A stretch of DNA of 64,000 nt from Balanoglossus misakiensis. Its lineage: Eukaryota; Animalia; Hemichordata. The DNA is taken from assembly GCA_040954595.2 (NCBI GenBank), contig CM082576.2, positions 3,694,760-3,758,759 on the forward strand, written 5' to 3'. The translations under genes were made by a program, and so were the position numbers. Below, piece after piece: positions 1,736-57,826 of this stretch; position 1 is the first letter of the stretch; every line of letters starts with the position of its first letter. The notes below the pieces were generated by a model. The model was given only the letters and a program-made list of their open reading frames with translations. It had not been told where the DNA came from and made no database searches.

Positions 1736-1760
1736 AACAAACATCTGACTGGTGCTGTAC

Positions 1761-6185: not shown

Positions 6186-11616
<5,431 letters not shown>

Positions 11617-30926: not shown

Positions 30927-32002
30927 TCATAGGTAACACTGCGGGGGTCTGGTGGACTGAGACACATCTGCATAACAGCTGTCGTACCTCGGTAAACTAC
31001 ACGCGTGGCCAGAATGGAAAGGAAGCGGTGCGAACGGCGTGGTCTGTGGAATTTGAGAGAAGCCGATAAAGTCACATGACCAATTCAGATCGTAACAGGG
31101 TTCGGTGTGATGGCAGAATGGTGGTGGTGGCGATGAAACAGGTGTCTGGAACATGCAAGGGTTGCCGGGAAAAACAAAAGACGTCGGTGGTGATGGACTC
31201 GGCGAAGATGGCGTGGAAGGAACATCGGAGAGTGCGGAATCGCTGTCTGTGGAGGATAAGCATGATGAACTATCGGTGTAGAGGGGATGATGATGATGAT
31301 CGGAACCGTCTTTCTTCTCGACATACCCTCGTCTGGCACGCCGCCGTTGCCTAGTACGGTTGTTACGAAACCAGCACTGTAAAAAGAAAAGACAAAACGG
31401 AATTCGTGAATCTACTTGACAGATGAGAATTTATGATAGACAAAAACAGGACGTTTGATCTCGAGATGCAATTTAACAATGCATGGGGAAGGTCGAAACC
31501 ATTCACACACACGTCGATGTTTCGTGAATATGGGTTTCGTGTTAACCCAGACAAGATAGCTCACTGCACTTCTTTTCTTACCTGGACTTGTCTAGCCGTC
31601 AAATCAAGTAACTCAGCGGTCCTCTTGACTTGGGATGGGGTTGGATACCTAGTGTACTTTTTATAAACCTCCAACAGTGCAGTCACTTGAACTTTAGTGA
31701 ACTGCCGAGCGCTCGTCGGTTTGACCGCCGCAGGCCTGGTGTATCGAAGCTTGTTTGTCATCTTCATTCCACCGTCTGTAAAGAAATAAGATACGATTAT
31801 TGCAAACCACTTGGCATTCCTATCGATTTGCTTCTAAGTCGGAAAATAGTGGAGTAAAGTGAACTCAATAATAATGCATGTTCTTACCTTTCTTCGGTGA
31901 TGTTGCCGTGAGGTCGATCAGTACGGGACTTGTTGATCTTCTCGCTGTTGACAAGTCTAATGGACTCGGCAAGTCAGACGATGCGGATCTCTCTGGGATC
32001 AT
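30927..32002 (-). CDS. Divergent PRD-like homeobox gene 3
   Basis: Exons 32002-31888 (MIPERSASSDLPSPLDLS..PVLIDLT..KK), 31775-31582 (FTKVQVTALLEVYKKYTRYPTPSQVKRTAELLDLTARQVQ), 31376-30927 (CWFRNNRTRQRR...). Confidence 0.9.
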
Positions 32003-35000
32003 TCTGGATAAGCGCGGTGGAATAGTGTTGAAGTAACGATCGACGTTTATCGAATGTGGTGATCAGTCTCTGGTGCCGCATTTTAAAGGACTAGGCCTCC
32101 GTTCACGTGATCGTCAACTTTTGTTCAAAACTCTTGTAGTTTTCACAAAGCGTTGCCGAGACAACGGCGTCATTTACACGTCACGATTGTCGGACTGTTG
32201 GCCTTTCGGTCCCTTGTCCAGAAACTTGAACAGCGGCAAGTTCACAAAAGACACCTGAAACATTCACAGTTCGTTGGTCTTTGTCATGGCGGAAACCACG
32301 CGACAGAGTCAAATCTTTTATAAAAGACAATTCTGATAGTTTTTATTGTTTCGATAACATGTTGAATTCTTTCATTCGGTGATCTTTCATCTTAAAACTC
32401 AGTTGCCTGTTTGTGTTCGTTTCCATGGTTAAAACGTTTTAACGTAATCTATGCTCTCATCCAAACCATCATCATGATCATCATCATCATCATCATCACC
32501 GCCGCCATCGCCATCACTCAACTGTCGTCGTCCTCGTGTTAATAGCCAATTTTTAATAAACAAATGTGATCTTCTTCCGAATGTCATGACGTTTGATTAA
32601 CTTTTGGAAACATTTCTTGCTGTTTTTGGCTTTAAAACATCATGGTCCCGACCCTGCTTTGTACAGTAATTGCTTTGGTCCCGTTGTTTCAACTCGTAAT
32701 ACATGTATACTAGTATATGGAGCACGCAGTTTTTTCACTGATTTAGTAGCACTGTTTAGTGCTTTTAATTATTCTGAATTGGCTGTGGCAAAACGATAGT
32801 TCCTATGGATTTTGGACACGCTAGTTATGATCACACAAAAGAAAGTCGTTTCATCTTCTACGGTGTTTGTTCATTGCCATTCTCACAGTCGAACGTTTGA
32901 TAAGCTTGTCATGTCAACTATACCCCGACAAACATGTTAAAGTGTCGTTTGATCACGTGTAACGCGCCGTCCTGAACGCGAACATGCCGCCATGAACTCC
33001 CGAAGATGTGATCAAAGGCGCAATGCGAACTTGTCAATCACGTCTCTTTTGTTCAGACCCATTACATGTATTTACCGAAAATACCGACACGCGACGACCA
33101 TCTGACCAGGACAATAGAATAATGGGGAATACCCCAACCACATAGCTTATTCCTGATCACCGTAATTACCACAATCAATGCTGGCTTGTGATAACTTTTT
33201 ATACGACCTTATAAGTTTGTCTAAACTTGCCATAGATACTTTGAATATTTGTTTCATCACAAGGACATATCCAAAAGTCGCGTCAACTGAGAACACGGGT
33301 AATAGAATAGCTAATACAACTCATTATCCCAATTATGGGAGTCAGTTCGACTGTTTATTTTCGGGCAATCTATTGGTTGTCCTTTTCCAAAACATGCCAA
33401 CATTCTGTCTAAACAGCAGGCGGTCAAAACGAAAGTCTGTTATCTTCATTGTTCATCTCCATTCTCACACGTACTCCTGGTCGCTTCGTACAATCGAAAG
33501 TGTTTGATCTGTTGTACTCTACCCTGATAAACATGTCAATGTCCCGTCTCCTTTGTAACAAGTCGTTCCGCGCACGCGACTACGAACTCACGGCAAGGCG
33601 ATCAAAGGCGGTGCGTCCAACAATAGAACCTTGTCAATCACGTCGCTTTTTGTCCCAGTACCGAAAACACCGACACGTGATGAGCTAGTGTTCCAAAACT
33701 ATCCACTGTCCCGTTTTTTAAATCTATCAAGTAAACGACGTTATGTTCAGGATGTAGGGCCCATTATTCCAATCCACTTCGAAATACAAATCTGCAAAAT
33801 TTGCCAAAATACAAATCTTCCAAAAGAACCTGTCTCACATCAAAGGACAGAGAGTATCAAAGGCGGTACCAAAGTATTACCGCAACAATGCGCACACGCC
33901 CCGTCAAACAAAAGACACAACAGAGAAGTGTAAGTAAAAAATAAGGTGCCAACAAGTTTCTTTGATCAAAACTTGAAGCGACACCAGTGGCATTTGGTGG
34001 AAAGGCGGCGGAGAATAATTAAGTTTGTCAAACAATTAGGAGACCGAACGAACCCCAGGTGCGAGTTATCAAGTAATTGTCTTGGGGCGGGATGGTACAG
34101 TATTACCTCTACATGTAATTTCAAAACACATCCACGTGAACTTGGTAAAAAAAATGGACAAAAAAACCCAGAATGTGTACAAGAGAAGATTATAAAGTAA
34201 AGTCGGATGAGTCCTATCCTATCATTATCTAATAATATAAACATAAGCCAAAAGATTCGAAAGTTTGAAAGTTCATGAATGCGTCGCACATTTGGATGAA
34301 AACAAGACTAGGAGAAAATGTTTGATGAAGTGTGGACCATGATAACGATGATGGAATATAAGTACTAGAGTTCCCACGTGGTCAGACATTGTGGAAACAG
34401 ACCTTGTAGAATTCTGGAATCGAAAAAACTAACAGTCTCGCATGTTGACAGTATTCTACCGGGGATCAAAACAATTGAATCTGAATTAGCTTTCGTTTTC
34501 TCTGTTTTCAACGATTCGGCGTTTGCCGCAATGATCACGTCATGACCAAGGCCAACAAACTGTGAATGTTTCAGGTGTTTCTGGACAAGGGACCGAAAGG
34601 CCAACAACCCGACAATCGTGACGTGTAAATGACGCCGTTGTCTCGGCAACGCTTTGTTAAAACACCAAGAGTTTTGAACAAAAGTTGACGATCACGTGAA
34701 CGGAGGCCCAGTCCTTTAAATTGCGGCACCAGAGACTGGTCACCACATTCGATAAACGTCGATCGTTACTTCAACACTATTCCACCGCGCTTATCCAGAA
34801 TGATCCCAGAGAGATCCGCATCGTCTGACTTGCCGAGTCCATTAGACTTGTCAACAGCGAGAAGGTCAACAAGTCCCGTACTCATCGACCTCACGGCAAC
34901 ATCGCCGAAGAAAGGTAAGCACATGCGTTATTATTGAGTCCACTTTGCTTTTTACTCTACTATTTTTCAACTTAGAAGCAAATCGATAGGAATGCCAAGT

Positions 35001-35652
35001 GGTTAGCAATAATCGTATCTTATTTCTTTACAGACGGTGGAATGAAGATGACAAACAAGCTTCGATACACCAGGCCTGCGGCGGTCAAACCGACGAACGC
35101 TCGGCAGTTCACTAAAGTTCAAGTGACTGTACTGTTGGAGGTTTATAAAAAGTACACCATGTATCCAACCCAATCCCAAGCCAAGAGGACCGCTGAGTTA
35201 CTTGATTTAACAGCTAGACAAGTCCAGGTAAGAAATGAAGTGCAGTGAGCTATCTTGTCTGGGTTAACACGAAACCCACATTCACGAAACATCGACGTGT
35301 GTGTGAATGGTTTCGACCTTCCCCATGCTTTGCGTTAAATCGCATCTGGAGATCAAAAGTCCTGTAAATTCTCATCTGTCAAGTAGATTCACGAATTTCA
35401 TTTTGTCTTTTCATTTTACAGTGCTGGTTTCGTAACTATCGCGCTAGGCAACGACGACGTGCCAGACGTGGGTACGGCGAGAAGAAAGACGGTTCCGGTC
35501 ATGCTCATCCCCTCTACACCGATAGTTCATCATGCTCATCCTCCACAGACAGCGATTCCGCACTCTCCGATGTTCCTTCCACGCCATCTTCGCCGAGTCC
35601 ATCACCACCGACGTCTTTTGTGTTTCCCGGCAACCCTTGCATGTTCCAGACA
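31143..35652. repeat. Large inverted repeat: arms ~31143-32288 and ~34541-35652, spacer ~2.25 kb
   Basis: Promoter, exons and both introns of homeobox 3 and 4 are near-identical reverse complements with small indels. Confidence 0.92.
32890..33970 (+). promoter_or_regulatory. Two diverged direct copies of an enhancer-like module plus extra TCF sites in the inverted-repeat spacer
   Basis: GATCAAAGG at 33010 and 33600, each followed by TTGTCAATCACG (33031, 33631); ATCAAAGG at 33839 and 33856; CTTTGATC at 33960. Confidence 0.6.
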
Positions 35653-35865
35653 TCATCTGTTTCGCCGCAACGACACTTCTATTCCACGGAGCCCTCCTAC
35701 GAGCTGAGTTGGTCGTGTGGCAATTTACCCGTCCCGCAGATCATCGAACGCGCACCGGTTCATCTCCATTCCGGCGTCTCGTGTAGCCTACCAAGGTACG
35801 GCAACGGCTTTGCAGATGCCTCACAGTTCCCCAGCCCGCCGCAGTATCAACGATGGCTCCCTTAG
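34800..35865 (+). CDS. Divergent PRD-like homeobox gene 4
   Basis: Exons 34800-34914 (PLDLS, VLIDLT), 35034-35227 (FTKVQVTVLLEVYKKYTMYPTQSQAKRTAELLDLTARQVQ), 35422-35865 (CWFRNYRARQRR...). Confidence 0.9.
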
Positions 35866-36732: not shown

Positions 36733-37967
36733 CTAAGCTGTAGAAGTATTAGTAACACCGCTTCCATTTTGAATCATAATGACCACATAGGCGACGGTTG
36801 ACACCAGCGACGCCGCACTCAGGAAGCAAGCCGCAAACAACACCGCGTTGTTCCAGTACCGGAGAGTTTTCGTGTACACCAGGCGACCAAAGCAATTGCA
36901 CATCGCCACAGCCGTCTCTGGTCCATCGCCCTCGTCGATGTCGACGACCCCGATGAGATGAATCAAGAGCGCGAGGAGAATCTCCAAGAAGATGCAACCG
37001 GCCACCGCCGCAATTGTGAACGGCTCCAATCCTGTCACCACTTTCGCAGACGGGTACTGAATGACTATCAAGCTGATTAGCATACCCACGTGTGTGACGA
37101 GAAGACCGAAATCCAACACACCGATCCCGGCGGTCTTCACAGTCACGTAGCTGTTGAACTTCCCGTACTGTTTAAATGAAAGTAAAACTTAGGATTAGGA
37201 GGCTATAGAAGTTAGCTTCCCATGTTAGGACGACTATACGGAATTAGTTCCTCAGATTTTTTTCTCTCGAGAAAGCACAATAAACTCCACGAGTTTCACT
37301 GACCATTGAAATTGCATACTCATCATGCTGAATGCCAAATTATTGCGACAGAATAAAAGCGGGCAGAGAATACTGTTCTATGTTTATTCGCGTGGCAATG
37401 AAACGAGAAAAGACAAAGTTTCTTGTGTTAAGTTTGAAAGTAGAAACTGACAGTACCAAGAAAGTCTATCAAACAAGAAACCACATGGAAACAACTTCAA
37501 ACTTCAAAAAATGGGTAAATGGTGAGGTCAAGAAACATTGTTTTTCCCCCAGCTTAACTGTTGTTGCGAAAGATCCATTCGGGCAATACTTAGTAGTCAC
37601 TATAGTTATAAAAGCACTAATAAGTTTCGAAAGACTTTCCAACACGCACCTTCCTGGCTGGTTCACCTTCGCATTGCCATTCAATCTCAGGACTTAACTT
37701 TTCAATCGGAAAAGCCCCCGTGGAATCTGCAGCAACCATGTCGTTTGTTTGGCCAGACTTGAGAAGTATGGTACTGGGGTCAAGACAAAACAGTCTGCCC
37801 ATGACGGAGCGGGTGAGACGGTCCTTTGACAGCCATATTCTGCCCTTCATAGCGTATGGCCCTGACGCCATGGTCCCGTTGACGAACACGCCGCTCTGTC
37901 GGCCGTCGCCGCCGCTGAACGCCACTAAGGGATCCGACGGAGGTGCTTGTTCGTGTTGGTCCGCCAT
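36733..37967 (-). CDS. Ninjurin-like protein 1 with an additional N-terminal globular domain
   Basis: Exons 37967-37650 and 37167-36733. NSYVTVKTAGIGVLDFGLL aligns to the ninjurin motif NHYASKKSAAESMLDIALL; it is followed by hydrophobic segments, with WNN before the last helix. Confidence 0.8.
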
Positions 37968-38122
37968 TTCCACTGCACTGGAGTTCTCAGTCTGAAGTCA
38001 CTGGATGGATGAGCTCTAATGACAGCTTTGAGGAGTGCACACCACTTTTCCAACGAAGGCAATTGTGTGACGCGCGTGATTTATCGGAGATGTTTCTAAA
38101 TACCCGGAAGCGCAGACCCCGC

Positions 38123-38136
38123 GTTGCTATGGGTAC
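38123..38136. promoter_or_regulatory. RFX X-box-like motif upstream of ninjurin-like 1
   Basis: GTTGCTATGGGTAC followed by GTAAAC; paralogous motif at 49014-49027. Confidence 0.55.
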
Positions 38137-39053
38137 GTAAACGTAAACACAAGCATAAATCCCGTCCACGCAAAAAGTCAGTCATCCGTGGAGAATGTAA
38201 ATGCACAGTTTTGTCAAACGCATGAAAATGCAAGAGGTATCTTCGAGCTTTTTAGTTTACAATACGCAGCCTACCCGCTGAAAAGGCTCTGGTGAATTCG
38301 AAGGAAGATTGAAAACAAACGGGGATGGAGAGCGCCCTATGTGGTGACGACGCCGAAGCATATTGCACTCACCTCGATTCATCAATAATTACACTGACTT
38401 GGAACGACCCCAGCGATGTCTGCATCCGAGTGTGACTTTGAGAACAAAGGCTGCGTAAACATGTACAAATGTAGTATGTCTCAGGTAGCATGGGGAATAT
38501 TCAAATGATACAGTGCCGTGAATACTATATCAATTCATACAGCTAGCTAAGCTGGGCTTCAAGTACACCTTGTACTTTTAGGATACAAATCGAAGCTCTA
38601 AATGAAGGGAAAATAAATTCTTGTAATACGCAAGTGAAAACTTCCCTAGTTTTAGCAAAATACAAAAGGTGCTTCGCAAAACTTTGGAAACAATACATCG
38701 ACAATCCGCATATGACTACTTTCACGAACAGGTTCGGCCCAAGGTGGCGCTGTGCACGTATATCTATTCCGCCACCATGATGATTACAATGTACTGGTCA
38801 ACCATCTGTTGGGCAGAACAGGATAGTAGTATGGTATACCTGGTATGGTCTATTCATTGAAGAATGTTGACATGTTTAAGTAACAGGTGGCATTTCGGTG
38901 ACGTCATGTTTGTCATGATTTAGACAGCGAAAATAGGTCCATACCCCAAATGTACTATAATAGTGTAAATTGATCCTCACTTATCTGTCGAAAATGTGCC
39001 ATCTACATACATGAAGCAAAATTGCACGCATCTGTACACGCAGCACATTACGT

Positions 39054-42000
39054 TCAACTGTGTGTGGTGTCGGTGAAATCAAAACTCTCGGTGTCCAGCT
39101 GTTCGACCTCTTCAGCCAGACTCGTCTCTCCGATAACTTTGAGGGTGTTGACCATCTTGTCAACTTGCTGCTTGACAAAAGCGGGTGTTTGCCTCTGATC
39201 CTTCCATTTTTGCAACAGCTGCAAGAGCTTGTCTTTCTGCGGGACGCTTTCTTTTTGTCGATGGCCCTTACTTTCTCGCGGGGGATTCCCAGGTGCGGGG
39301 CCAGCTCCTTCCATCTTGCCGGGTCAAGTTTGGAGTTGATTATCTCCAGCGCTGAGGTCATAGCCCTTCCTGCAAGACATAACGAGAACAGAACTCGGTT
39401 GGACGGTTGTGTTGGACGTAGTATTGAAACGACCCACACGCGACACGTGCAATCCTACGCCTTCACATGCATACAAAATCAAAGATGGCTTCCTTTCCAA
39501 AGTGAGGCTGTCCCCTCCCAATGCTTCTGGGTGAGGGCGCAACACGTATAAGTTCAACCTGTCTCTACTTTCCAGATCCATTCTTTTGTCACAAAAGTTG
39601 CTGTTTGCTAAAATAATCATGTAACAATAAAATCGCACGTCGTTAAACAGAAAAGAGTACTGAAGTACTGTTATATATAAATGAAACATTTCTGCTGACA
39701 TTTTAATTCTCCGAAGAGAAAAAAAACTTTCACCAATGAAATGTCATACTCACGTGCAACAACATGAGCGGCTATCTCTGTAGAGAAGGAAAAGTGAAAT
39801 TAGCAATTAATTTATTAGCCCTTTCCTTGAAATGGTTCTTGATAGAAATCTTACGTAAACATTAGCTTTAAATCACAACAATTCATGTGATGACAAATTA
39901 TCGTACATGTATTTGTTACATGTAATGTTACACTTTGTTATCGTGTTCACAGTGGCCTGTGAACACATTACCTATGCATAAAGCAGTAAACCAGACGCAC
40001 CTTCTTTTCTGTGCTTGCACTCTTCGAAAATCGCCTTCATGTCGTCTGAATCCCTGGGAAATGGTTTCCAGTTATGTTGCACAGCATTTAACTGATGTCT
40101 GCACCCGACATCCTCCGGGCATATCACCTTGAAGGCGATGGAGTAGGTCAGGGAAGGCCAAGTACTTCGCATGCAGTCCCTGAGTTTTTGGACGAACTGT
40201 TCGTTGAGGACGCGATAGGTGCTCTCCATGTCAACCGACATGGTGGTCTTGATCGACAGTGACTTGGACGCCCCCTTGTGTTCAGAGACCACCATACTGA
40301 CACCGCTGAACGAGGCAAGGAAGCCATCTTTCCATTCCTCTCGCACGTTTGCGTGCACGGTGCAGACGAGCACACTCATGAGCCTGGACGGACAGAACCA
40401 CGGGAATTCCACCCGGGCTTCGAACAGCGGTACGAATTTCACGGGGACGCTCATCCCCTTCTGGAGGTATCCTGGGAACCGCAGCACCCTCGGTGACCGC
40501 TCGTCGGCGTTTATGCCTTCAGAGTGGAGAAAAGAACCTTCGTTTCCCTCGGGATCCACTTCATAGCAGATCTTGAACCCGGTCAGCACATCAAACACCA
40601 ACGACATCACATCAGGGTCCAGTTCTAAATGGCCCAGGACGCACTCTCGGATCACGTCTTCCGACAAGACCGCCTTGCTCTCAAACGTCTCATTCACAAT
40701 GGCGAACTTTGTACCTCGATAGCCCGGCGGAAAGCTGTTCGCGTCCAGGAAGTCTGAATGGCCCTTCTCAAAGATCGCCTGGAGGATATCTTTCAGGAAA
40801 TCCAAGTTATGGAAGACATAGTCTCTAAGGCTTGGTATCCAGTCGTAGTATTGCACGACACCGATTCGTTTCATGTATGCAATTACACCTTGAATGTCTC
40901 CCTCCTGTAGGCCAACACTCCTACCAATACCCTCAAATTCTGAAAGAGTGAGCCTTACTCTCTTGAGTTGATCATCATCATCCCTTGTTTCTAGCAGCTC
41001 TCTCTCAAGCTCCAACATCTTTTGTATGTTGGGCGTGCTCCCGTTCCTATCCAGAGATGTGGTGCTGGCGGGAAGGAGGCGTTTGTCCTTGTCCAGTAAC
41101 AGCTGACAAATCTTGTCCTTGCAAACCTTCATACCGTTCTTGGCCTTCCCAACAACAATCACTTCAGTTGGCGACGAAAATAGAAGCAGGTCTTTATGCT
41201 GACGCTGCTTCAGTTCACTGAATAACTTCTGTAGCTCTTTACTTATGTTGCTGCAGGTCTCCCTTACCTTCTCTGCGTCTAGTTTATGAGCATGCGTTCC
41301 GACTATGGTTACTATTATTTCCCCTCCAATGGAAACCACGACATCCTTGATCCACATTGCAATGCACGCCTGGAAACCTTCCGACGGATACCGCTGCAAG
41401 TTGACTGTGATGATGTATAGAGAATTTGCTGTGTAAAACAGTGGGTACACAGATTGCACACTGCCGCTTCCGCCGCAGTATGTTAGTTCCGCGTCGATGT
41501 TGTCCGTAACCGGCCATATCGCTCGGTCCATGAAAGCAACCGTGCCGCTTGATGTGTCAGATTCCCCGCCAGTGTTCATGGCTGCCTTAACACCATTTCC
41601 TGGATTTCTACCATTTGTGGTCACTGGTATGTCTTGCTGTGTGTTGCCAGATGCTGGTTCTTCATCTTTCCTTGAGGTTCCCTCACCACCGCTAACGACA
41701 ATCCTGTCTGAACTGGTAGTCACTTGATCAGGCTGTCCCTTTTCTCCTTGCCCTCCGGGATCTTCATTGTTATTGACCTCTGACCCACGCCCATCTTCAC
41801 TTCCAAGCCTCCCTGATTGCCTGTCACGCGATTTTTTGAGCCTTTTCATAAGCGTGGCCTTGCCAGCGCCTTTGGAACCAAGAAGAAATATTTTGCCCCT
41901 TGCAATGCTGCTAAGATGAGGCGATTCTCTCAACTTCCGCCTCATCTCTCCCAACTTTGTCGTCTTGACTGCATCAGGGACATCTCTCAGCAGGTTCCCG

Positions 42001-43874
42001 CCAATTTCTACCTCTGTCCCTATTTTCTCCTCCAGTTTGACAAGTGCACTTGGTAAGAAGTATAACTGATTGTCAGAGACATTCACCCTTTTCAGACTCT
42101 TGACATTTTCAATAGCCTTCGGCACAGAACGCAAACAGTTGCCACTCACATCCAGTGTCTGCAGGTTTTGCTTGCCTTTGCATGCAGTTTTGTCTGTGCG
42201 AACGGTGTGAATTTGGTTTCTGCTCACATTAAGCTCTTGAAGAGTCGGGTGCTGAAATACATGCGCAGGCACGACGATCAGCTGGTTTCCGTCAAGTTTC
42301 AGACTTTGCAACTTCTTCAGCTCCTTAATTTGTTCCGGTATTACTTTCACATTGTTGCCGCCCATGTCGAGATCCACCAGATGCTCACAAGAAAAACAAA
42401 CAGGTGGGATGTGTACGATGTTATTGTCTTTCAAGTTCACATCTTTAAGTTTCATGCTGTCCACTGGGCCAATGTTGTCATCACCACCACCATCATCATC
42501 ACTATCATTGACACCGCTCTTAACACGGACACCGTCATCTGAACCAGCATCTTCTCGTGTGTCCTTTATTTTATTTCCAGACAAGTTGATGTGTTCCAAA
42601 GTTTTCATTCTGGAAAGACGCTGTGGGACACATTCCAGCCTGTTCCTTGCCAAGTTCAGCGTCTTCAGTTTTTCCAGATGTATGTTTTCAGGAATGTCTG
42701 ATATGCTGTTCCCCTCTAAGTCGAGCTCTTCCAGATACCTTGCGCTGAACAGGCTGTCGGGTAGATTATTGATGTGATTACTCTTGAGGGAAAGCTTCTT
42801 CAGCTTCTTCATTTTACCGAAGTCGATGTGGGTCAGATCTGTTAGATCATTAAAATCAAGGTGCAGGGACTCCAAGCTGGGTTGTTCCACCTGCTTCGGT
42901 AGATGGCCTATTTTGTTGTTCTTGGCAGAAAGGTGACAGAGCGCCATTTTGTCGAACGGGACGTCTGCAATGTCACTTATCGCGTTTCGATCAAGATGAA
43001 AATCCCTGAGTTTGTTGAGACCTCTGAATGGAGCGGGACTAAGGTTATCTATTGCGTTGTTTGTCAGTATGCAGGTGCTGAGACAGGCGAGTTTGCTGAA
43101 CGCGTCAGGCACGTCCCTGATGTCATTGCCTTCGACGTTGAGGAAAACCAGCCGAGTTAGCACCGCCACAGTATGTAAGATTCCCTTGCCTTCAGGGGGC
43201 ACATCAACGTCGAGATGGTTATTTCTCAGGTCCAAGTGGCGCAGAGCTTTGAGTCGAGTGACTATGCTCTCTGTGATACCAACGGTCAGGACAGGCTTAG
43301 TTGTTAAATCTGCACAGAGTTTGAGTGTGTGCACGAAGATGGGTAGTTGTGCCACCGTGTTTTGCTCGACTGACACCACTCCATTTCGACTCCAGTCTAG
43401 AACCTGCAACTTTCTCAACTTGGAGATATCGTGAGGGATAAATGATAGCCTGTTGTCTGCCGCCAGAAATTTTGCGAGCTTCGGCAACTTGAAGACATCT
43501 CCCCAGAGTTTGGAGAATTTGTTTTTGCTGATGTCTAGATGCTGCAACTTTCTCGCGATTCCGATGCCAGGAACGCTTGTCAAACTGTTGTCAGATAGAT
43601 CGATGTAAGTAAGGTTTGGCAACTCAAAGAACTCGTATGAAATCCACGTTAAGCGATTCCTGCTCAAGTTCACATATCGCAATCCTTTGAGTTCGACGAT
43701 GTCTTCTTTTATGTCCGCGATGTAGTTATTGGACAAATTCAAAGTCTTGATGTCGGTCCTGCAGTCATCGATCAAATGATCGGGGACTGCTCTTAGTCTT
43801 TTATTTGTTGCTACATATTCTGGCTTTGGGCTAGCAATGTCAGTATTGTTGAATTTTGAGGCTCCTGATCCCAT
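39054..43874 (-). CDS. Roco protein 1: N-myristoylation motif, LRR, Roc-like, COR, death domain (1-nt frameshift inside the DD exon)
   Basis: Exon 43874-40001 (MGSGASK, many LxxLxLSxNxL repeats, P-loop LGSKGAGKAT, VGTH, COR-like HNLDFLKDIL..F), micro-exon 39777-39754, DD exon 39369-39054 (WKELAPHLGIP / LLQKWK..LKVIG..LAEEV in two frames). Confidence 0.85.
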
Positions 43875-45476
43875 AATATGTTTTTCGTGTCCTTTTCACC
43901 AAGCGGACGACTCGAGTGGAACTTCTAAAGTACAAACAATCACAAATCCCTTTGTATCATGGTTGCACGTAACATGGGACTGCTATTTCTGTCCTGTCCA
44001 CCAGGATAGGCATGTCAGGATCTAAGGTCCTTGTTCCTAAAGGTAAGGAGAACGAGTTCAAAATTTCAAATTATGTCTAATCCAAATGTTCAGCAAATGT
44101 TGCGTTCGGCGCATTCAAATAGTGGACTATCTTCCCTCCCTACCATCGATCGCCGCCCTATAAACGACTCCAATGCGTTCACGCATTCTCTTATACATTT
44201 ATTAGGTTGTACAAAGTTTTATCATAGTTTTGACCTTCTTGATTTATATATTTACGATGGTAGAAATGACAGGTGGTATGTGTCGAGCTTTTGAGTTCAT
44301 GCCAAGAATTTAAGGGTGTGCTGAGGTACGTTATGGACGTTATGGGAGTTGCAATACAGCAAAACACCGAGGTCTACGGCAATGCTGTGCAAATAGACTG
44401 CAAGTGGATACTCAACGTTTCGCTTCAATTAGGGACTAGGTTAGATTACTGGCCAAATTACAACAAAGCGAGCACACGCGGCTGTCAACGGTAAATTTTG
44501 TATGAGATATAGGAAGCAAATGACAGTACTGACCGAACCGTCGCAGATTGCGGGTATTATCAAGCCTCTATCAGGTTATGGCGAACAAGTGTTGAGATCC
44601 ACGCACCGTTCTGTTCATAGCCACAACCCGAACCTCTGTTGGAAATACCCTGTCGTGTTTTCTTTGTGACGATGTCCAGATCCGGGTCTGTCTGTCTACT
44701 GCACGTCAACACCGGGCTTGTGAGAGAGTCTATAGTCAACACCCCTACTCAAACCACGGGCCCAAAGTGCGTTGTTTCTTTGACAGGTTCCCCTTCAAAC
44801 GAGTTAATCTGTAACAAAAGGCGAGCTGCGCAGACGCGTACAGGTGAATGGCAATTTAATGATCTCACCACCAACTAAAAACATGGCTCAAAGTTCTGGC
44901 GCAGAATCGCCGTCGCATTGAGTGCGAAACGTTGCAATTTCCTTTATAGATTGTCGCATTGGGATCATGTAGGAGTTTCCTGTAATAATGGATGCTAACG
45001 TGGAATCTGCAAATGTTTACTTTTGTGCAGACAGACGGAAGAAAGGACAGACAGACAGACAGACAGACAGACTTTAATTACTGGTAAAAGTGATGAAAAA
45101 AACCAAACATGATTCTTCCTAATATAAGCTTGGTTATAATATAAGTGTGTGAATAACTGAAGCTCGAGTACAATGCGGAGAGAACCGTTACCACCAGGAT
45201 GTTGGTGAGATTGTTACTTGGTTGACGTCAGGCCACAAATGCGGGTTGTTTTTCTCCGCGACCGCCACTTTCATACCTGCTCAGCCGATACATGTTTCTG
45301 CATATTATCAGAGAATTTGAAATATTGTGAATATTTGGCAACGTTTTACTGATTCACTTTTATTCTAAAGTGTAAGTCTAGAAGATTCCAATCTTCCTGG
45401 TACCTTGTTTCTGGAAGATATGCTATTATACTAGTCCGAGGGAACAACTGTAGACATTTGTCAGTTTTTGGCTTGA

Positions 45477-46533
45477 CTAAGAGGCTGGCGCGATACGAAT
45501 TACAAATACCACAAACAAAACTCCGGTAACGAGGGTTGTTCCGGCCAAGGTGTATGTCAAGAACGTAATCGTGTTGTTGCGTCGGCGTACAGTTTCCTTG
45601 CAAATCCTGCCGCAACCACTGAACAGGGGAACCGGTGTTTCCTGTCCTTCGCCGTCGTCGATGTCAACAATACCCACTATGTAGAGGAGGTAGGCAAGTA
45701 CGAGCTCTAACAAGATGCAGAGGCAGGAGAAAGCTATGGTAACTGGCCAGATGTCGAACGACTTGTAGGACGACGACGCTGTCCCGAAGACCACCAGGGA
45801 CACCAACAAACAGACGTGGGACGCGAACAGCCCGAAGTTCATGATACTTAAGGCGACTGTTTTCGAAGTGGCGTAGGCGCTGAATTCACCATACTGTAAG
45901 ACAGATCGAAGAATAATACGTGAGTTGTGATATTTGTTGTCAGAAATTAAAAGAGGGATCGGAACGTGTAGGGGTTTGGGCAGTACTTTTTACTTTTTTT
46001 AAAATACCGAAGGCCTCCCAAACGCACTTTTAAGTCACAATTCCGTATAGGTCAGTAATGTGTGTACCATTATCGATCAGTGTAGGTTTAATAAAAATAC
46101 TTGTCACGTTCCACCCGTCCCGCCTGTTCTAAAAACAATAATTATCACACACCTTGCGTGCAGGTTCCCCTTCACAAATCCAGTCTACTGATGGATCCAA
46201 TTTCTCCAAGGAAAACCCACCGCCGCTTTCTGGACCGACGAACGTGTTGTCGACACTTGACTTCAAGACGATCGTCTTCGGATCGAGACAAAACAGTTTG
46301 GCGAGAACGGAGCGTGTTAAGCGGGCTTCCGAAAGCCAAACCCGACCCCTGACTGTGTAAGCCCCGGCACCCATCATTCCGGCGATCGTCACACCATGAA
46401 TGTTCGGGTTCGCTTGGTGCTGTCGGCCTGACGACTCCTCGGCCATTTCTTGCAGCTCGCTCCGGTTCCGTGAGCCTCCCCGCGCTTTTCTCTTCTGGTC
46501 ACGTTCTGGTGAAACGCTTGCTGTCGCAGCCAT
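45477..46533 (-). CDS. Ninjurin-like protein 2 with N-terminal globular domain
   Basis: Exons 46533-46153 and 45893-45477; SAYATSKTVALSIMNFGLF motif, hydrophobic helices, RNN. Confidence 0.8.
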
Positions 46534-47054
46534 TTCTGTTGTTTTGACTTTTATTTTTCTGGCTACTTGGGGGCTGATCTAACTTGTCATAGTTGAGATA
46601 CGTTAACCATATTAACATACCATCTGTCAAAGTGAGATTGGGTTGACGTCTACGACCAATTGTTTCACGCAAACAGACAGAAGGGAGAAACATATCAGAA
46701 ACGTGTCAGAAACTTGTCAGAAACATCTGAAAGTTCCCTGTCCAAAAGTGACACTCCTCTCAGCGCCTATTGTTCGACCAAACAAATAATGAATAGAAGT
46801 GTCACAAGATGGTAAGAAATACACTAGCCAACTGTGACGTGAATTTAGTATTCACCAAAATGTGTGTAGCCAGAATGTTGTGCAGAAAAGAGCTCACACG
46901 TACACATTTAAATATTGTTTAACTAGATTGTAATTCACCAAAAGAACGAAATACAAAAATTATGCACATAAAATACCTCTGTAGGAACTAACTATAATAA
47001 TGCGGGTGACGAAAAGTTTAGAACACAACAACTCACGACAAGAGCAATGTCCAT

Positions 47055-47279
47055 GGTAGGCTGGCAGGTACAACAGACGAACGCACGCCCGACCAACACG
47101 GACACGGACGGTGACCGGAGGAACGCTGGAAGTAGAGTGGAGCCCCTAGGACATGAAGCATCGACCTTTTATATGACCAGTTTTGCATCACGACTGTTTC
47201 AAACGCGATCTCAGAAGCTGATTGGCGTACTCGATGTCACCCAACAGATGTAACACGCACAACATGTTAATAACCCGCT
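47055..47279 (-). repeat. Dispersed promoter-like repeat, copy 2
   Basis: Homologous to 20921-21157; CCAAT and TATAAAAG on the minus strand, pointing at ninjurin-like 2. Confidence 0.8.
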
Positions 47280-47499
47280 CAGCAAGTCACAGGAGAAAAT
47301 CAATTAATGTCAAATAACAATGACAGGGTTGTGACCTTTGGCAAGTTATCGAGGGTTCATACACGGGGACCAAGTACAAAATGATAAAAGGGGTTCGTTC
47401 GCGTAACACTTATATGAAAGGTTCGCTTGGTCCCTCTTTGAAATGATACATCAGACAGAAATGTTGTGATAAAATAGCATTTTCCCCTCTTTAGGTCTA

Positions 47500-48646
47500 T
47501 CAGAGAGATGCTTCGAGTTGAACTATAATTATCATGGTAACAAAGGTTATTCCGACCAAGACGGCTGCCATGACAGTGATCGTGTGGTTACGTCGGCGTA
47601 CAGTTTCCTTTAAAATTCCGTCATAGCAAATAAACAGGGGAACCGGTGTTTCCTGTCCTTCGCCGTCGTCGATGTCAACAATACCCACTATGTAGAGGAG
47701 GTAGGCAAGTACGAGCTCTAACAAGATGCAGACACATGCAAAAGAAAGAGCGACTTCCCAAAGACCGGCCGACGTACTGTTCAAGAACAGGTCCTGGTTT
47801 ACCACGAGGGCCACTAACATACAGACGTGGGACACAAACAGACCAAAGTCCATAATACCGATGGCGACTGTTTTCGAGGTAGCGTAGGCGTTCACGTCAC
47901 CATACTGAAAGAGAAATAAAACAAACTATAGATACCGTGTACGCGGATATCAATATTTGAAACCGTTCGGTACACGACACGAGGGTCAACCCATACTCTA
48001 GAACTTGAAGTAAGCCAGTTTCGGATTCCGTGTGATGATCATAAAACTGTGTCCAAACTTGAAAATATCAGTTTGCGTTATGGCTATAAAATGTAATTAT
48101 TGTATTACAGTGCTCTAACGTTCTCACTTGAATTGGAATTTACACATTCTTGATGTAAATATTAATAGTAGATTACTTTCCAATGAGTATGCCAGACGTT
48201 GGTAATTTCTTACAAGTTTAATGCAGAGATAAGGCCTCATATACTCCGACAAGGTCACACACCTTTCGAGCGGGCTCTCCTTCGCAAATCCAGTCAACCT
48301 CTGGATCTAGTCTGTCCAGGGAAAATCTGCCGCCGTTTTCTGGTCCTATCTTAGTATTGTCTTTGCTTGATTTCAAAATTATCGTTTTGGGATCGAGGCA
48401 AAAAAGCTTGGAGAGAACGGAGCGTGTTAATCGGGATTCTGAAAGCCATATTCGCCCGTTGACTTTGTATGCTCCGGTACCCATCGTTCCGGTGACGGTC
48501 ACACCATTGAAGTTCGGCGCCGGTTGGTGTTGTCGGCTCGATGCATCTGCGTCTCTTTCTTCCGAGCCTAGTGCGCTCGATGTCCGCGACACCTCTTCTG
48601 GGGATGGTGGATCACGCTCAGGCGAAACGCGAGCAGTCGCTGCCAT
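47500..48646 (-). CDS. Ninjurin-like protein 3 with N-terminal globular domain
   Basis: Exons 48646-48263 and 47904-47500; VNAYATSKTVAIGIMDFGLF is the closest match to the ninjurin N-terminal helix motif. Confidence 0.83.
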
Positions 48647-49013
48647 TTTACGGAGTCGAAGTAAGTTGTTGGACAACTACTGACAGCAAAGAAGGAACTA
48701 TTTACGGTCACATCGTATCGAGGATCGGAGGTATGAGGAAGCACCGGACCTTCGACCTGTTTACGAACAAATCATATAGAGCCTCAGACATTGTCATAGC
48801 AACTGTGTGTTGTCTCTTCTCTCTTGTTTGTCTTGATGCGACATTTAGTCAATAGGCCATTGAGATTTATTACATTACAGTTCAAAGGACAAGGAATTTA
48901 GTGGGTGACGATCAGGCAGAATTGAAATAAAAATACGTCGAGGTTTTTCGACCCTGTCAAACAATGGATACGTTTTGTTTAAGTTGTAGGTGTGACCCAT
49001 TGGGTTTTGCGTC

Positions 49014-49027
49014 GTCGCCATGGGTAC
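49014..49027. promoter_or_regulatory. RFX X-box-like motif upstream of ninjurin-like 3
   Basis: GTCGCCATGGGTAC followed by GTGAAC, ~100 nt past the Roco2 stop codon. Confidence 0.55.
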
Positions 49028-49125
49028 GTGAACAAGCTCGGGAGATTAAGAGTTCGAATCCGATAAATGCATTACAATGTATATGTGCAATGCATCAGGT
49101 TTGACCCAAAAGTGGATTGAACATA

Positions 49126-52100
49126 TCAGCACTGGAGCTCAGATAGCGTATCAGCCAAAGCTTGCTCATTGATAACCCTCAGACTATTGATCAGAATTTG
49201 GAATTGCTGCATCATGACGCCAGGAGTGTGGAGTTTGTCTTTCCATCGGTCCACGAGTTCTCTCAGCTTATCCTTTTCACATCCGCCGTCCCGTCTGTCG
49301 ATTACGGTTACCGTCCTTCCCGGTATTCCGAGCTGTAAGGCGAGTTCCTTCCACTTTCCGGGTTCCAACTTGGAACAGACCAGATCGCAAGCTTCATTCA
49401 CCATCCCCCCTACGGAAATTCAAACATTGATTCTTCAGTATGAGTAAACTGGCAAGAGACAGCTCCAAATATAGTTGTAGACTTTACAAAGCAGTTTTGC
49501 TTGTCAACACCATTCCAAAAATGACGTTTTGAAGAAAGACAGTTGGCGTTGTCTCTCAATTTGGAAAAAAAATGAACAGAGGAAAAATTAAAAAACAATG
49601 CATAGAAACGGATGCTAGTAGTAAAATACTTACTTGTAACAGTGTGATCGGCTGCTTCTGATGAAGTAATCAAACAATTAATACAAGTTAGTAAAGCAGG
49701 TTTTCACACAATTTTCAAACAGTCAATCTATGCGCTACCTACTCGTCTTTCATCGTGAGTAATTATTGGCTATGTTATCTACAAACTATTCTGACACATC
49801 TGACAAGAGATTCTTGTTTTGCTTTGAAGAATATAGTGTCTGAATAATGTCCGTCAGAAAACTACGAAATGCCTGGTCGATAATGATATAAAATGTTTGT
49901 TTGCTTGCTTGTGCGTTTGCGTACCTTGCTGATACTGGCATTGGTTTAGTTCTTCCAGAACTTTCGAAGAATCCTTTGGAAACGGAATCCGTGAATGATG
50001 CATTGCGCTGTTCGGATGCTCACAGCCCACTCCCTCTGGGCATATCACTCTCAGCTTTGTGAGATAAGAAACGCTTGGCCACTTTCTCTTCATGATAGCT
50101 CGCATTCTCTGAAGCAAACCAGAGTTTAAGACATTGAAGACGTGTTCAGTGTTCGTCAGCATTTCAGCCCGTAACTCGTCGCCAGGAACGTCCTCTGCTC
50201 GTTGGCGCACTCTCTTGTCCATCGCCGTTTCCACAACCAGCGTCGATGTCTTCGAAAGACCTTTCTGTTCCGTGATGGTCATGGTGACTCCGTTGAAGAC
50301 ACCGTAGAAGCCATCTTCCCACGCTGCCTTGATGTTACTGTTGTACGCGCAGGCCAGGGTGTTCAACATCGCCGACGAACGCCACGACTGAAGTTCAATA
50401 CCCGTTTCCAGCACGGGTTTGAACTTCCGCGGAATGCGAGGCACTTTACTCAAGAAGGCAGGAAACCTCAGAACTCTCGTTGGAGGCTTGTCCGTGGCCA
50501 TTTCGAGGGAAGAAAGCGATTCTTCTCCAGAATGTACTTGATAGCACACGCCGAAACCAATCAGTACATCCAGTACAAGTGACAGGGCCTCGGTACTCAC
50601 ATCCAAACTGCTGAGAACATATTCTCTGATCACATCGGCCGACACGACGGCCTTACTTTTGAAAGTCTTCCTGAGGCGAGATAAACCACCATCATCATTG
50701 ACTGTCGATGAGCGGATCTTGCTCCCAAGGAAGTTTTCTTTCTCTCTACCAAACATTTCCCCGAGAACATCTTTCAGGAAGTCCAGGTTATGAAAGATAT
50801 GACCTTTAAGGTTAGGTATCTTTGCGTAGTGTTGCAATACACCGGCTCGCTTCAAGTACACCACTATGCTTTCTGCGTCCTCTTTCAAATAGCCGACTTG
50901 CTGCAGAAGGTCTTCGAATTCCAACAGGGTGATGGCAACTTTTTGCTGGTGGACATCTTTCAACTTTTCACGGAGAAGTTCTTCACTTGGTTGTGAATTC
51001 ACCATCTCTGCTTGTTTGTCTTGGCTGCAAACATCCGTTGAATTGGTGGGAAGTAGATGATTGTGGCCACTTCTCAGAAGTTCGACCATTTTGTGTCTGC
51101 ATAGGTCGATCTGTTGTTCACTCGCTCCCATCACCAAAACGTCCGGGAAAGAGGAAAGAACCGGCGAGTCTGTCTGTTTCCTTTGCTGCCAGTCCGTCAA
51201 ACACTTCTTCAGCTCGTTCCCGATGCTTTTGCGGACTTCCTCGACCTCGGTCAGCTGTAAACTATCGCCGCATGTACCAACAACCACGAACGTCACGTCT
51301 GCTCCAACACTGTCCAGGACGCCATCGATGAACACTTTGATGCAGTCTTTGAAGCGCTCATCTGGGGAGATGATGTACTGGGCAAGGTTAACGATGATGG
51401 CATACAGCGTAGAGTCGGTGTAGAACAGTGGACAGGCCAAATGCGCCATGCCTCGTCCTCCGCAGTAGACAAACTCAATGTCCAGGTCATGATCGAGTGG
51501 TAAGTTGACGCAGTCCATAAAACTCAGGGGTTTTGCGTCTTCTTTGTCTGCATCGTTTGTTTCTGAAGGCTCATCTTCTGGTGCACTGACTGGACGTTGG
51601 TCTGATCGTAGGGAACCAGCTGGACGCGATTCGTGACCATCTACAATCATCATGGCTTGTAAGTTTCGGATAGTCGTGGCTTTGCCAGCGCCATTGGCAC
51701 CGAGAATGAATATGCGACCCTTTTTCTTTGGTATCTCTGTTGCAGCGGGGTCTTCCGCTTGTTCCTCTTCAGGGGAAACACTGTCTTCGCCGTCTTCAGT
51801 TACCTCTACCGACGTGGTAGACGTCCCAGAGCTGAGACTTCCATCTTCAAAGGAGTTTCCTTCCGAGTTTACACCTTGAGAGGAGTCTTCATCTTCAAAA
51901 GGGTTTCCTTCTAAGTTAACATCCTTCAACGTCTTCATTTCCGACAGACACTCCGGAACACGTTTCAAACGATTACTTCCTAAGTTCAGTTTCTCAAGAT
52001 GTGGAAAATAAAATCCAGATGGAAGGTCGTGTATCTGATTGCATTCTACGTCAAACGTCTCCAGGCAACGTGCTTTGCAGATAGCACTGGGAATTTCTGT

Positions 52101-53189
52101 TAGGCAGTTCTTCTTCAAGGAGAGAGACTTCAGCATCTTCATCTTGTGAAAGCTTACATGGATTACCTCAGTCAATCTATTGCAATCCAAATGGAGTGTC
52201 TCTAAAGTCGGCTGCGCGATCTGTTCAGGAAGACGACGTATCATATTGTCATTCATAGATAGAACAGCTAGCCTCATGTCGTCGAATGGAATCGCGTCTA
52301 TATCCTGTAGTTCGTTTTTGTCGATTCTGAAGATCTCCAGTCTTCTTAAACCCTCAAGGGAAGCCGCAGGCAACAGTTGTATGCTGTTGTTGCTCAGAAT
52401 GCATGTTGTCAGAGAGGTAAGGTTGCTGAACGTGCCTGGCAGAGCCTTGATGCAATTTCCTTCAACGTTTAGATACACCAGGCCGGTCAGCAATGCCACG
52501 GCGTGCAGGATCCCTTTGTCTTCATCTGTAATGTTTTTGTCGAGAAGATTGTTGCTGAGGTCCAAATGTTCTAAGGACTTTAGACCTTCACTCAGACTTG
52601 AGGGGAGGATTGGGGCCAATAGGGTAGATCCTTTCGTTCCGAGTTTCAGTGTAATAAGCGATGGGGGCAACACAAGTTCGCGAACGGTGCCAAGTGGATT
52701 CCTTCTCAAGTCGAGGCTCTTTAACGACTCCAACCGGGCAAATTCATTTGGGAGGGAAGACAGCTTGTTGTCGGCTGCAAGCAGATGTTGTAGGCGACGG
52801 AGTTTGAAAAATCCCGCGTGCAGTTTTCGAAACTTGTTCTTGCTGATGTCCAAGTGCAGCAACTTCTTGGCTGACTCTAGTCCGGGTAAACCTGTCAAGT
52901 TGTTGCCAGACATGTTGGCGTGCGTGAGTTGAGGCAATTCGAAGAACTGATAGGCCACAAGACTCAAACGGTTGTGGCTGACATCAACGTGTCTCAGTCC
53001 GACGAGCAGACTGATTTCGTCCGTTATTTCTTCGATGAAGTTTGTGGAAAGACTGAGGGACTTTATGTCAGTTCTCGCCTCCTCAATCAGCTCATCGGGC
53101 ATTGCTACAAGTCTTCTGCCCTTCTTTTCATAGACAGGTGATGGCATCGTTCCCACATCGCCGCCGACTTTTGATAATCTGATTCCCAT
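49126..53189 (-). CDS. Roco protein 2: N-myristoylation motif, LRR, Roc-like, COR, death domain
   Basis: Exon 53189-49925 (MGIRLSK, LRRs, ILGANGAGKAT, VGTCGD, HNLDFLKDVL), 24-nt micro-exon 49657-49634, DD exon 49409-49126 (WKELALQLGIP..LVDRWK..LRVINEQALADTL). Frame is intact. Confidence 0.88.
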
Positions 53190-55870: not shown

Positions 55871-57826
55871 CTAATTTGATGAGTGTTTCATCTTCTTTTC
55901 TCTGGGTCTACGTTTCTTGGTGGCAGTTGTGGTGGCGGTCGCGGTGACATCGTCCTCCGCTTTCCGTTTGTGACCCACCGCCGTTTCTGACTTGGCCGTG
56001 GCCACCTGACTCAGCTTGCTGATCTCGGCGGTCAGGCCCTCGAACTTGTGATCGTACTCCAGGAACTTTCTGTTCATTTCGTTCAGCTTTTTGTGCTGAT
56101 CGCTCAGCTTGCTGTTGAGTTCGTTGATGACCTGCTCCTGGCGCTGCGACTTCTTCTCCAACTCGCAGTATTTCTTCCGCTGCTCCATCAGCATGCGCCT
56201 GTGCTCCAGGAACTCCTTCTTGAAGAGCAGCTGGTTGTTGACGCTGGCTTTCAGCTGCGACTGCACCCTCAGCACGTCCTGGCGCCGCGCCACTGCGTTG
56301 CTTGAGCCGATAGCAATGCTTGTGGATGTGCCTAAGAAGAGAATGTACCCAAACTCCCCAGTCAAGACACCCATTTTACCATAAACCCCTGAATACAGTC
56401 AAGTAATACAGTCGATCTGTCAGCACAACACACGGCAGTTTTCTTTCCTGAAGGACAATACCCACAAAAGAGTCCACAATGTTTGTATGGATTTATGTCA
56501 GAGCAACAGCCAGACAATACAAGTTGTACCGCACTACTAACCTGGACAGGGATGTTTTATTATAAATTCTGAAGAGTTGGTCATCTTTTTCTTGAGGGTG
56601 GGAACAATTTTCTCATCAAAGTATTCCATGGACATAGAGGAAATGTCTCGTAACTCTTGAAGCAGTTCATGGGCTCTGGGTGGGTTGGGTGTCTTTTTGA
56701 TATACTCAATCAGCTGTGTGATCTCATCAAGCACCTGGTAAAGGAGACACAGTCATTGTTAGGTTACATGTTTTTTCCATTTCGAAAATTAATACTCGGA
56801 TAGATATTTTCCTGAATAAAGTCACACATGGTGCAGTTCTGCTCATCAATGGACAATGCCACAGAAAAAAGCACACATCCAAAAACACATTTAAGAAGCA
56901 TTCAACACAGCAGCCATAATCCATCTATTGGAGGAAGAACTGTGGAAAAGGGGTTACCGGTAGTTCATTTAAAGTCATTTTATTTTGTTAAGGTAATAGT
57001 AATACTACTAGTGCCATTTTCTGCCTCACCTTTCCAGGTATAAAACAGCACAGGTTCATATCCACATACTTCATGAATGTCATACCCAGTAATGAGAGTC
57101 TGGTCTCGATGGCTGCCAGTATATCACAGTGTCTTGACAACGGGTGATTCCTTCTTTCAGACTCCCTCCTTGGTAGCCTAGCTTTTAAGTCTTTCTGATA
57201 CTGGGAGTGGAATCTATCAACCTTGTGGTAGCCTTGGTTCAAAAGATCCTGACAGATTTCATCAAATGTCTTACAGACCTGAGAATTATTGCAGATAAAA
57301 AGAGACACTGTGAAAGATGGTAAGCTCATGTGATTGCGGGTTCTGTGGCCATGTGGTATATATCAATCAGCAGCAGCCAACTTTGAGAGCTTATATTTGC
57401 ATATTCTCAAAAGAAGTTTTCAAAACAAGTGCATGATGGAGTGACGCTAAAATAGGCATGCAGATAATAATCATCCTCCGAGTAAAGACTGTCCAGCTAT
57501 AAAGCATGATGCATTCTTGGACATTGGTCGTTTCGACATCAAAGGTTGTGGGACGTAGATAAAGTGACGGGCTTTCACCGTAAACACTAGTGCATTTGCA
57601 CAAACAAACAGCGAATGTGTATCATGCATCATATGCGTTGCCGATTAACATTTTAGTCATTTCAGTCTCCAACATCAACATTTCAAAGAATACTAACCAA
57701 TCTCAGCTCACTGACTTCTTCATACGATAAATAACCCATAATGTGACGCATTATTTCCACTGGAAGTGTTAGAAACTGTGAATAATCTTCAGACGACTCT
57801 GGCTGCGACTTGCTGGTGGACGCCAT
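55871..57826 (-). CDS. FBXO28: F-box only protein 28
   Basis: Exons 57826-57698 (F-box LTLPVEIMRHIMGYLSYEEVSELRL), 57278-57030 (LPRRESERRNHPLSRHCDILAAIETRLSLL..CCFIPGK), 56734-56542 (RAHELLQELRDISSMSMEYFDEKIVP), 56331-55871 (coiled coil, basic tail). Confidence 0.96.

Follow-up and report, generated by a model that had tools for sequence, protein, structure and literature searches.

Fungal and bacterial NLR-like sensors are often encoded next to membrane effectors. Among animal proteins, the kinase-less ROCO proteins (MFHAS1/MASL1, and the Roc-COR-Death proteins of Trichoplax and molluscs) share a core of leucine-rich repeats (LRRs), Roc and COR; the union of Roc-COR with death folds is already known (PMC9334734) and is described for Trichoplax (PMC4104024), and we saw mollusc Roc-COR-death clusters in the ESM Atlas. 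The described membrane proteins closest to our subject are NINJ1 and NINJ2, for which Pfam Ninjurin (PF04923) and the PDB entries 8SZB, 8UIP, 8CQR and 9BIA served as references. Both kinds of protein are encoded side by side in a 64,000-nt stretch of the acorn worm Balanoglossus misakiensis (assembly GCA_040954595.2, contig CM082576.2, positions 3,694,760 to 3,758,759; called the window below, with positions counted from its first letter), in which 36733 to 53189 hold two Roco genes and three ninjurin-like genes. Each of these ninjurins is fused to a predicted ubiquitin-like domain, and the Rocos have a likely dead GTP switch. A sequence-only reading of the locus had proposed a sensor/executioner module for cell death, and we tentatively favor a modified form of that proposal.

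Six-frame translation and splice-site reading gave five minus-strand genes in the transcription order Roco2, Ninj3, Ninj2, Roco1, Ninj1, which agrees with the order and the single strand proposed before, and the intergenic gaps along the array were 479, 966, 1602, and 1086 nt (the first one, from the Roco2 stop to the Ninj3 ATG, had been put at about 480 nt). GT-AG splice sites were present at 7/7 introns. Each Roco has a 24-nt micro-exon directly before its death-domain exon, and the three ninjurins share one exon split at a phase-0 site, so the unit of a death-domain Roco followed by a ninjurin does occur twice with the micro-exons, separate death-domain exons, and two-exon ninjurins that the sequence-only reading had described. 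Roco2 (1190 aa) consists of exon 1 (49925..53189; an MGxxxSK start, LRRs, a degenerate Roc with GKA at G1 and YCGG at G3, and COR, identified by open reading frame, Pfam, ESM Atlas, and motifs), the micro-exon (49634..49657; bounded by AG/GT, in frame, and aligned to the Glandiceps protein P0013), and the death-domain exon with the stop (49126..49409; Pfam Death 23 bits, cut-off 22.6). Roco1 has the same plan, with exon 1 at 40001..43874 (MGxxxSK start, a longer LRR array, degenerate Roc, COR), the micro-exon at 39754..39777 from splice-site reading, and the death-domain exon at 39054..39369. Because P0013 contains both the micro-exon peptide and a complete death domain, the Roco gene model was confirmed.

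Contigs of the DNA runs X1 and X2 spanned 30/30 bins of the region, which ruled out an assembly artefact; the two runs come from one sample and one study, and they are possibly the source of the assembled window itself. Allelic differences were taken from 40 of the 213 found between contigs and window, and 13/20 of the single-letter differences listed for Roco2 were synonymous. The proportion of nonsynonymous differences (pN) was lower than that of synonymous differences (pS) in 8/8 paralogue comparisons, with synonymous sites near saturation in the old pairs. The five genes are real and under constraint. An apparent stop among the Ninj3 variants disappeared once two changes in one codon were read jointly.

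Several further observations were made in the Ninj3-Ninj2 part of the array. A 642-bp high-copy insertion, recognized by its joint and by read depth in X1 and X2, lies between the two genes (46716..47357); it is polymorphic, being missing from some contigs, and has no clear terminal inverted repeats. One X1 contig links the start of Ninj3 to the body of Ninj2 through 35 other letters (46459-48605), with the frame kept as judged by eye, and this joint may stem from a different haplotype or an additional paralogue, in which case copy number may vary; no further ubiquitin-like or ninjurin copies were found in the 64-kb window. The second exons of Ninj2 and Ninj3 share an identical tract of 100 nt and are otherwise 73% identical, which suggests gene conversion between them. 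Four clustered allelic changes at 47777-47796, all altering amino acids, fall in the loop that connects the first two helices of Ninj3, and this loop is predicted to be extracellular.

The second exons encode the ninjurin-like membrane domain (Ninj3, 47500..47904; Ninj2, 45477..45893; Ninj1, 36733..37167). Pfam Ninjurin matched Ninj3 with 24.6 bits (2.5e-5) and Ninj2 with 19.4 bits (1e-3), both below the curated cut-off of 26, and did not match Ninj1, whose exon 2 is 36% identical to that of Ninj3. When a profile of five family sequences was run against PDB, 5/5 matches were ninjurins (best E 9.6e-4), and the Ninj3 domain by itself also had NINJ2 as a PDB match. The model of the domain is a three-helix bundle (helices 2-39, 46-78, and 102-133) with a mean predicted local distance difference test score (pLDDT) of 68, and its Foldseek search ranked NINJ2 first (probability 0.98, but a weak E of 0.045) and NINJ1 K45Q third. 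The ninjurin identity assigned earlier from the letters is thus borne out by sub-threshold Pfam matches in two of the three proteins and by the fold match to NINJ2. The whole proteins are 262 aa (Ninj3), 265 aa (Ninj2), and 250 aa (Ninj1); Ninj1 is 44% identical to Ninj2 and 43% to Ninj3, and Ninj2 and Ninj3 are 65% identical to each other.

Residues were mapped to NINJ1 numbering through the PDB alignments, with key residues as given in PMC10307626. Like NINJ1 and NINJ2, the window ninjurins begin helix 1 with Y-x3-K-[ST] including K45, which is retained in 5/5 family members, and they have the D53 position, occupied by Asp in Ninj1 and Ninj3, by Asn in Ninj2 and the Saccoglossus protein P0001, and by Ala in P0003; the K45-D53 salt bridge is reported as a feature of the lytic NINJ1 type (PMC10307626). 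The first helix is unbroken in the model, as in resting NINJ1. Unlike in NINJ1 and NINJ2, however, helix 1 is far more hydrophobic (one or two charged residues in a 30-residue stretch versus six in NINJ2, counted by eye), the positions of K44, E49, Q63, and K65 hold Ser or hydrophobic residues, Q91 is replaced by Glu, no Gly stands at position 93 or 95 in any of the three, and the loop before the last helix is longer, acidic, and Cys-bearing. The window ninjurins therefore lack the amphipathic polar face of helices 1 and 2 and the G95 of the lytic NINJ1 type.

The largest difference from NINJ1 and NINJ2 is at the N-terminus, where a folded ubiquitin-like domain replaces the segment of NINJ1 that is described as disordered, with no function assigned to it in that description (PMC12547243). 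Exon 1 of Ninj3 (48263..48646) encodes a low-complexity leader and ends in this 86-residue domain, whose model (pLDDT 88) has the beta-beta-alpha-beta-beta topology of a beta-grasp fold; the corresponding domains of Ninj2 (exon 1, 46153..46533) and Ninj1 (exon 1, 37650..37967) are 76% and 54% identical to it. Neither Pfam nor a PDB sequence search gave a useful match. Ubiquitin-like folds, including RA/RBD, CIDE, PB1, and TDP-43 N-domains, made up the majority of the leading rows in Foldseek and VIA, with the best structural match at Z 6.3 and a root-mean-square deviation of 2.8 over 71 residues, rows tied within about 1.5 Z, and Foldseek E above 0.02; an ESM score of 0.92 to TDP-43_N was flagged as unreliable. 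Between the end of the domain and the Lys equivalent to K45 there are 14 residues in 5/5 proteins.

When this N-domain was used as a profile query against 1.84 billion proteins, nine matches came back, of which three were real and all from Saccoglossus; the other six (P0004-P0009) were repeat-driven matches to unrelated domains. Word-based searches retrieved 0/254 candidates for the N-domain and 0/7996 for Roco2 Roc-COR, a weak negative, since they missed relatives that were found later. Two metagenome loci were discarded, because in both of them a stop-rich frame of high-GC DNA had matched by chance over 19 residues.

The domains assigned to the Rocos by the sequence-only reading were also recovered. 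In Pfam the LRR matches were strong, Roc was weak (2e-4, Roco1 only), COR-A matched at 3e-4 and 2e-3, and Death matched Roco2 just above the cut-off (8.5e-5) and half of the domain in Roco1 (1.6e-4), so that Roc precedes COR as in other Rocos. The Roc-COR region fell among Roc-COR clusters of the ESM Atlas at 0.96, with 10/10 best matches in one clan, and the orthologue P0002 exceeded the Pfam Roc cut-off (32.7 versus 27). NCBIfam gave LRR-type and weak P-loop matches only, and a PDB sequence search with the Roc-COR region of Roco2 alone gave nothing useful. With the LRR region of a four-Roco profile, LRRD1 was the best PDB sequence match (E 1e-78), far above other LRR proteins, which is probably generic LRR similarity. 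Roco1 and Roco2 are 40% identical, so the duplicates are, like the ninjurins, as well diverged as had been noted. Five of five Rocos start with MGxxxS and four have Lys at position 7. MGxxxS with Lys at position 7 is the myristoylation consensus, so this start is consistent with the membrane anchoring postulated for the Roco protein.

Unlike other kinase-less ROCO proteins, the window Rocos combine the MGxxxS start and ninjurin neighbors with degenerate G1 and G3 motifs. G1 is GKA, with Ala after the P-loop Lys, in Roco1, Roco2, and P0013, versus GKT or GKS in both Saccoglossus Rocos, and G3 is YCGG in Roco1 and Roco2 and YCSG in P0013, versus DCSG in both Saccoglossus Rocos; the G3 Tyr aligns to the DxxG Asp of Rab6. 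In G-proteins, the Ser/Thr of G1 and the Asp of G3 hold the Mg ion and the phosphates. Because both residues are lost, the two Roc domains are predicted to be pseudo-GTPases that are unlikely to act as GTP switches. DxxG is reported to be the most conserved Roco region, whereas G4 is variable among Rocos (PMC6337361); here the Asp of G4 [N/T]xxD is present in Roco2 and P0013 and replaced by His in Roco1. A pseudoGTPase is defined by the loss of a G motif (PMC5593906), and the window Rocos resemble p190RhoGAP pG1/pG2, CENP-M, dynein LIC, Rnd, and RGK in having a G-domain without one or more of them, but differ in that this G-domain belongs to a Roc-COR tandem. Since the P-loop Lys is retained, as is part of G4, the domains may still bind nucleotide without catalysis.

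In the window haplotype, the death-domain exon of Roco1 switches frame near 39253 through a 1-nt frameshift, so that it is read in two frames and P0013 aligned to it by tblastn in two pieces. One extra base at this point keeps the frame open in an X2 contig and is absent from X1, and the death domain of the Glandiceps orthologue P0013 is unbroken (Pfam Death 33 bits). The simplest reading of these contigs is a segregating broken allele.

Relatives of both families were found in acorn worms only, in the protein searches made. A query with the Saccoglossus relative retained 3/5327 candidates, namely P0002 itself, one more protein of Saccoglossus (P0014), and P0013 of Glandiceps talaboti, which is 52% identical to Roco1. 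The ninjurin fusion of Saccoglossus kowalevskii is 35-36% identical to those of the window, and the Rocos of Saccoglossus and Glandiceps are 29-52% identical, which makes them orthologues or close paralogues; the uncharacterised database entries are LOC102802228 (XP_077865728.1), XP_006817044.1 (P0002), XP_006817047.1, and LOC144357888 for Saccoglossus and LOC144446238 for Glandiceps. The Saccoglossus Rocos retain the GTPase motifs, whereas LOC144446238 lacks them, like the window Rocos. Trees placed the Saccoglossus Roco pair apart from Roco1, Roco2, and P0013 with 100/100 support, and a grouping of Roco1 with P0002 was rejected by the approximately unbiased test (p-AU 3e-56), so the Roco duplication was separate in the two lineages. 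Support was low in the trees for placing the Roco1-Roco2 split before or after Glandiceps (44/8; p-AU 0.41).

The Saccoglossus proteins also bear on linkage. In P0001 the domain is followed by a ninjurin and in P0002 by LRR-Roc-COR; the two share a stretch of 99 identical residues that stops where the conserved exon ends, and in RefSeq XP_006817044.1 the ubiquitin-like exon is joined in frame to the Roco at the conserved phase-0 boundary. An MGxxxSK start stands in P0002 itself, 4 residues past the junction, and the newer model XP_077865728.1 joins the ubiquitin-like exon to the ninjurin, which suggests that P0002 is a merge of neighboring gene models and less likely a real splice form. In either case, a Roco and a ninjurin would be adjacent and co-oriented in Saccoglossus, and the accessions of P0002 and P0014, three apart, suggest a tandem Roco pair there.

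Our best explanation, which we hold only tentatively, is that the Rocos and the ubiquitin-like ninjurins belong to a common pathway of membrane damage or immunity, in which the Roco, a predicted nucleotide-independent scaffold, would control ninjurin clustering through the ubiquitin-like domain. The Roco would be myristoylated and sit on the cytosolic face of the membrane, and the resting ninjurin would be a three-pass, N-inside bundle. The N-terminus of resting NINJ1 is placed inside the cell by a review (PMC13093763), and if the same is true here, the ubiquitin-like domain would share the compartment of the myristoylated Roco. Binding or polymerisation of that domain might then pull on helix 1 and either release or hold the resting dimer, and death-fold adaptors would receive a separate signal from the death domain of the Roco. 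As the output, clustering, adhesion, or limited permeabilisation is more likely than NINJ1-type rupture. The resemblance to the NLR-like pairs is that a repeat-NTPase gene adjoins a gene for a membrane protein with an extra N-terminal module. The NLR (STAND) sensor-effector class, with its STAND ATPase and C-terminal repeats, was nevertheless rejected, since the repeats here come first in the protein and the NTPase is of the Roc type; moreover, these are animal head-to-tail genes, and the coupling of their products is putative.

Of the proposed sensor/executioner module, the domains, the old duplication, the myristoylation-type start, and the probable linkage in a second species stood, but the dead G1 and G3, the loss of G95 and the helix-1 polar face, and the frameshift in one death domain of this haplotype did not fit. 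The probable Saccoglossus adjacency speaks for the claim that the linkage is old, and we consider it probably old, with the pairing likely present in a second acorn worm. Several points weigh against our explanation. No Glandiceps ubiquitin-like ninjurin was among the nine profile matches, though a Glandiceps Roco is annotated, and P0003, the other ninjurin of Saccoglossus, lies on a different contig. The genes run head-to-tail, and Roco2 is separated from Ninj3 by a polyA signal; the window contains other old tandem duplicates (e.g., ZU5-death-domain receptors at 40% identity), and this haplotype carries a disrupted death domain in Roco1. The middling structure scores of the N-domain settle neither its subtype nor its binding mode, and the N-terminal topology of ninjurins is disputed according to the review cited above (PMC13093763).

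For two of these reasons, the lack of a Glandiceps ninjurin among the matches and the other old tandem duplicates, we regard it as about as likely that the linkage is a bystander effect, in which unrelated neighbors in a region rich in immune genes and prone to duplication were copied together once, Ninj2 and Ninj3 were then duplicated, and the Roco uses its death domain for signaling independently of the ninjurin. One segmental duplication explains the alternation, given the 40% identity of the Rocos and the 43-44% of Ninj1 to the other ninjurins, and the other 40% pair in the window shows that co-duplication needs no functional link here; the window also has three homeobox genes and a 1.3-kb inverted duplicate, and the Saccoglossus Roco was also duplicated independently. 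Conservation of microsynteny is common in hemichordates. However, the probable Saccoglossus adjacency persists despite Roco identities of 32-38%, the two families proved equally narrow in range in our searches, and both proteins would face one membrane leaflet.

A bolder version of the scaffold explanation is that the pair is a linked acorn-worm sensor-executioner, in which a myristoylated LRR-Roco grips the ubiquitin-like domain in the manner of Ras and RA and gates rupture, and in one lineage the switch became a dead scaffold; this we consider unlikely. Less likely still is the strict model of a GTP-switched LRR sensor that activates the adjacent ninjurin to polymerise and rupture the plasma membrane like NINJ1. 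The ninjurin homology with K45 throughout and D53 in Ninj1 and Ninj3 fits it, and the GK[T/S] and DxxG of the Saccoglossus Rocos mean that the switch may have worked in the ancestral pair, but neither window Roco has an intact G1 or G3, and G95 is replaced in 3/3 window ninjurins, where the equivalent G92A change in turbot NINJ1 impaired lysis (PMC12799870). Helix 1 also has only its one or two charges, and even NINJ2 is reported as non-lytic (PMC12547243). Lysis by the window ninjurins is therefore doubtful, since G95 and most polar residues of helix 1 are lost, although K45 is retained. Other outputs have been reported for ninjurins, including a role in haemocyte adhesion in the fly (PMC11664169) and a rupture-independent role in zebrafish (PMC13503662). 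Finally, a ubiquitin-like exon spliced to either the ninjurin or the Roco exon, which would give effector and sensor the same polymerising domain to couple through, is very improbable. The in-frame fusion in XP_006817044.1 at exactly the phase-0 boundary fits it, but this model has the signs of a prediction merge described above, and in the window in-frame stops lie 24 nt (Roco1) and 12 nt (Roco2) before the ATGs with no strong in-frame acceptor after them.

The rest of the window contains further duplications. Two tandem single-pass receptor-like genes on the plus strand (7685-11613 and 13271-17333) each encode a Cys-rich exon, a hydrophobic exon, ZU5, and a death domain; the ZU5 exons are 40% identical, and the tail is UNC5-like with an unusual ectodomain. 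They are possible death-domain partners, and the Roco2 death domain showed no pairwise similarity to that of the nearby receptor (E 12). An interleukin-17-like gene (18906-19586, minus strand; Pfam 1e-15), three divergent two-exon homeobox genes (21545-22532 and 30930-31833, minus; 34976-35862, plus), and three Mucin2_WxxW repeat exons (29159-30503, plus) follow; two of the homeobox genes lie inside the 1.3-kb inverted duplication (89% identity). The minus-strand flanking genes at 1425-3565, 55874-57362, and 58738-61698 resemble TTC8/BBS8, FBXO28, and ETAA1, with a TPR and a weak coiled-coil match in Pfam, and could be used as synteny anchors.

The sequence-only reading knew of no described Roco-ninjurin pairing, and in mainly open literature we likewise found no paper on it, on a ubiquitin-like-ninjurin fusion, or on a pseudo-GTPase Roco, nor any linking ninjurin to hemichordates; the genes might nonetheless appear in the supplementary gene tables that accompany genome papers on hemichordates. 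The general impact is limited by the range of the system, which looks narrow. Ninjurin activation is an open question, on which the fusion bears: because nature has placed a folded module at a constant spacing from helix 1 of a ninjurin, the N-inside topology and activation by clustering can be tested directly. The Rocos form a natural pair, with motifs intact in Saccoglossus and dead here and in Glandiceps, which can test whether Roc-COR needs GTP, a matter relevant to LRRK2 and MFHAS1. If an LRR-Roco does gate ninjurin rupture, no dedicated activator upstream of a ninjurin would have been described before it.

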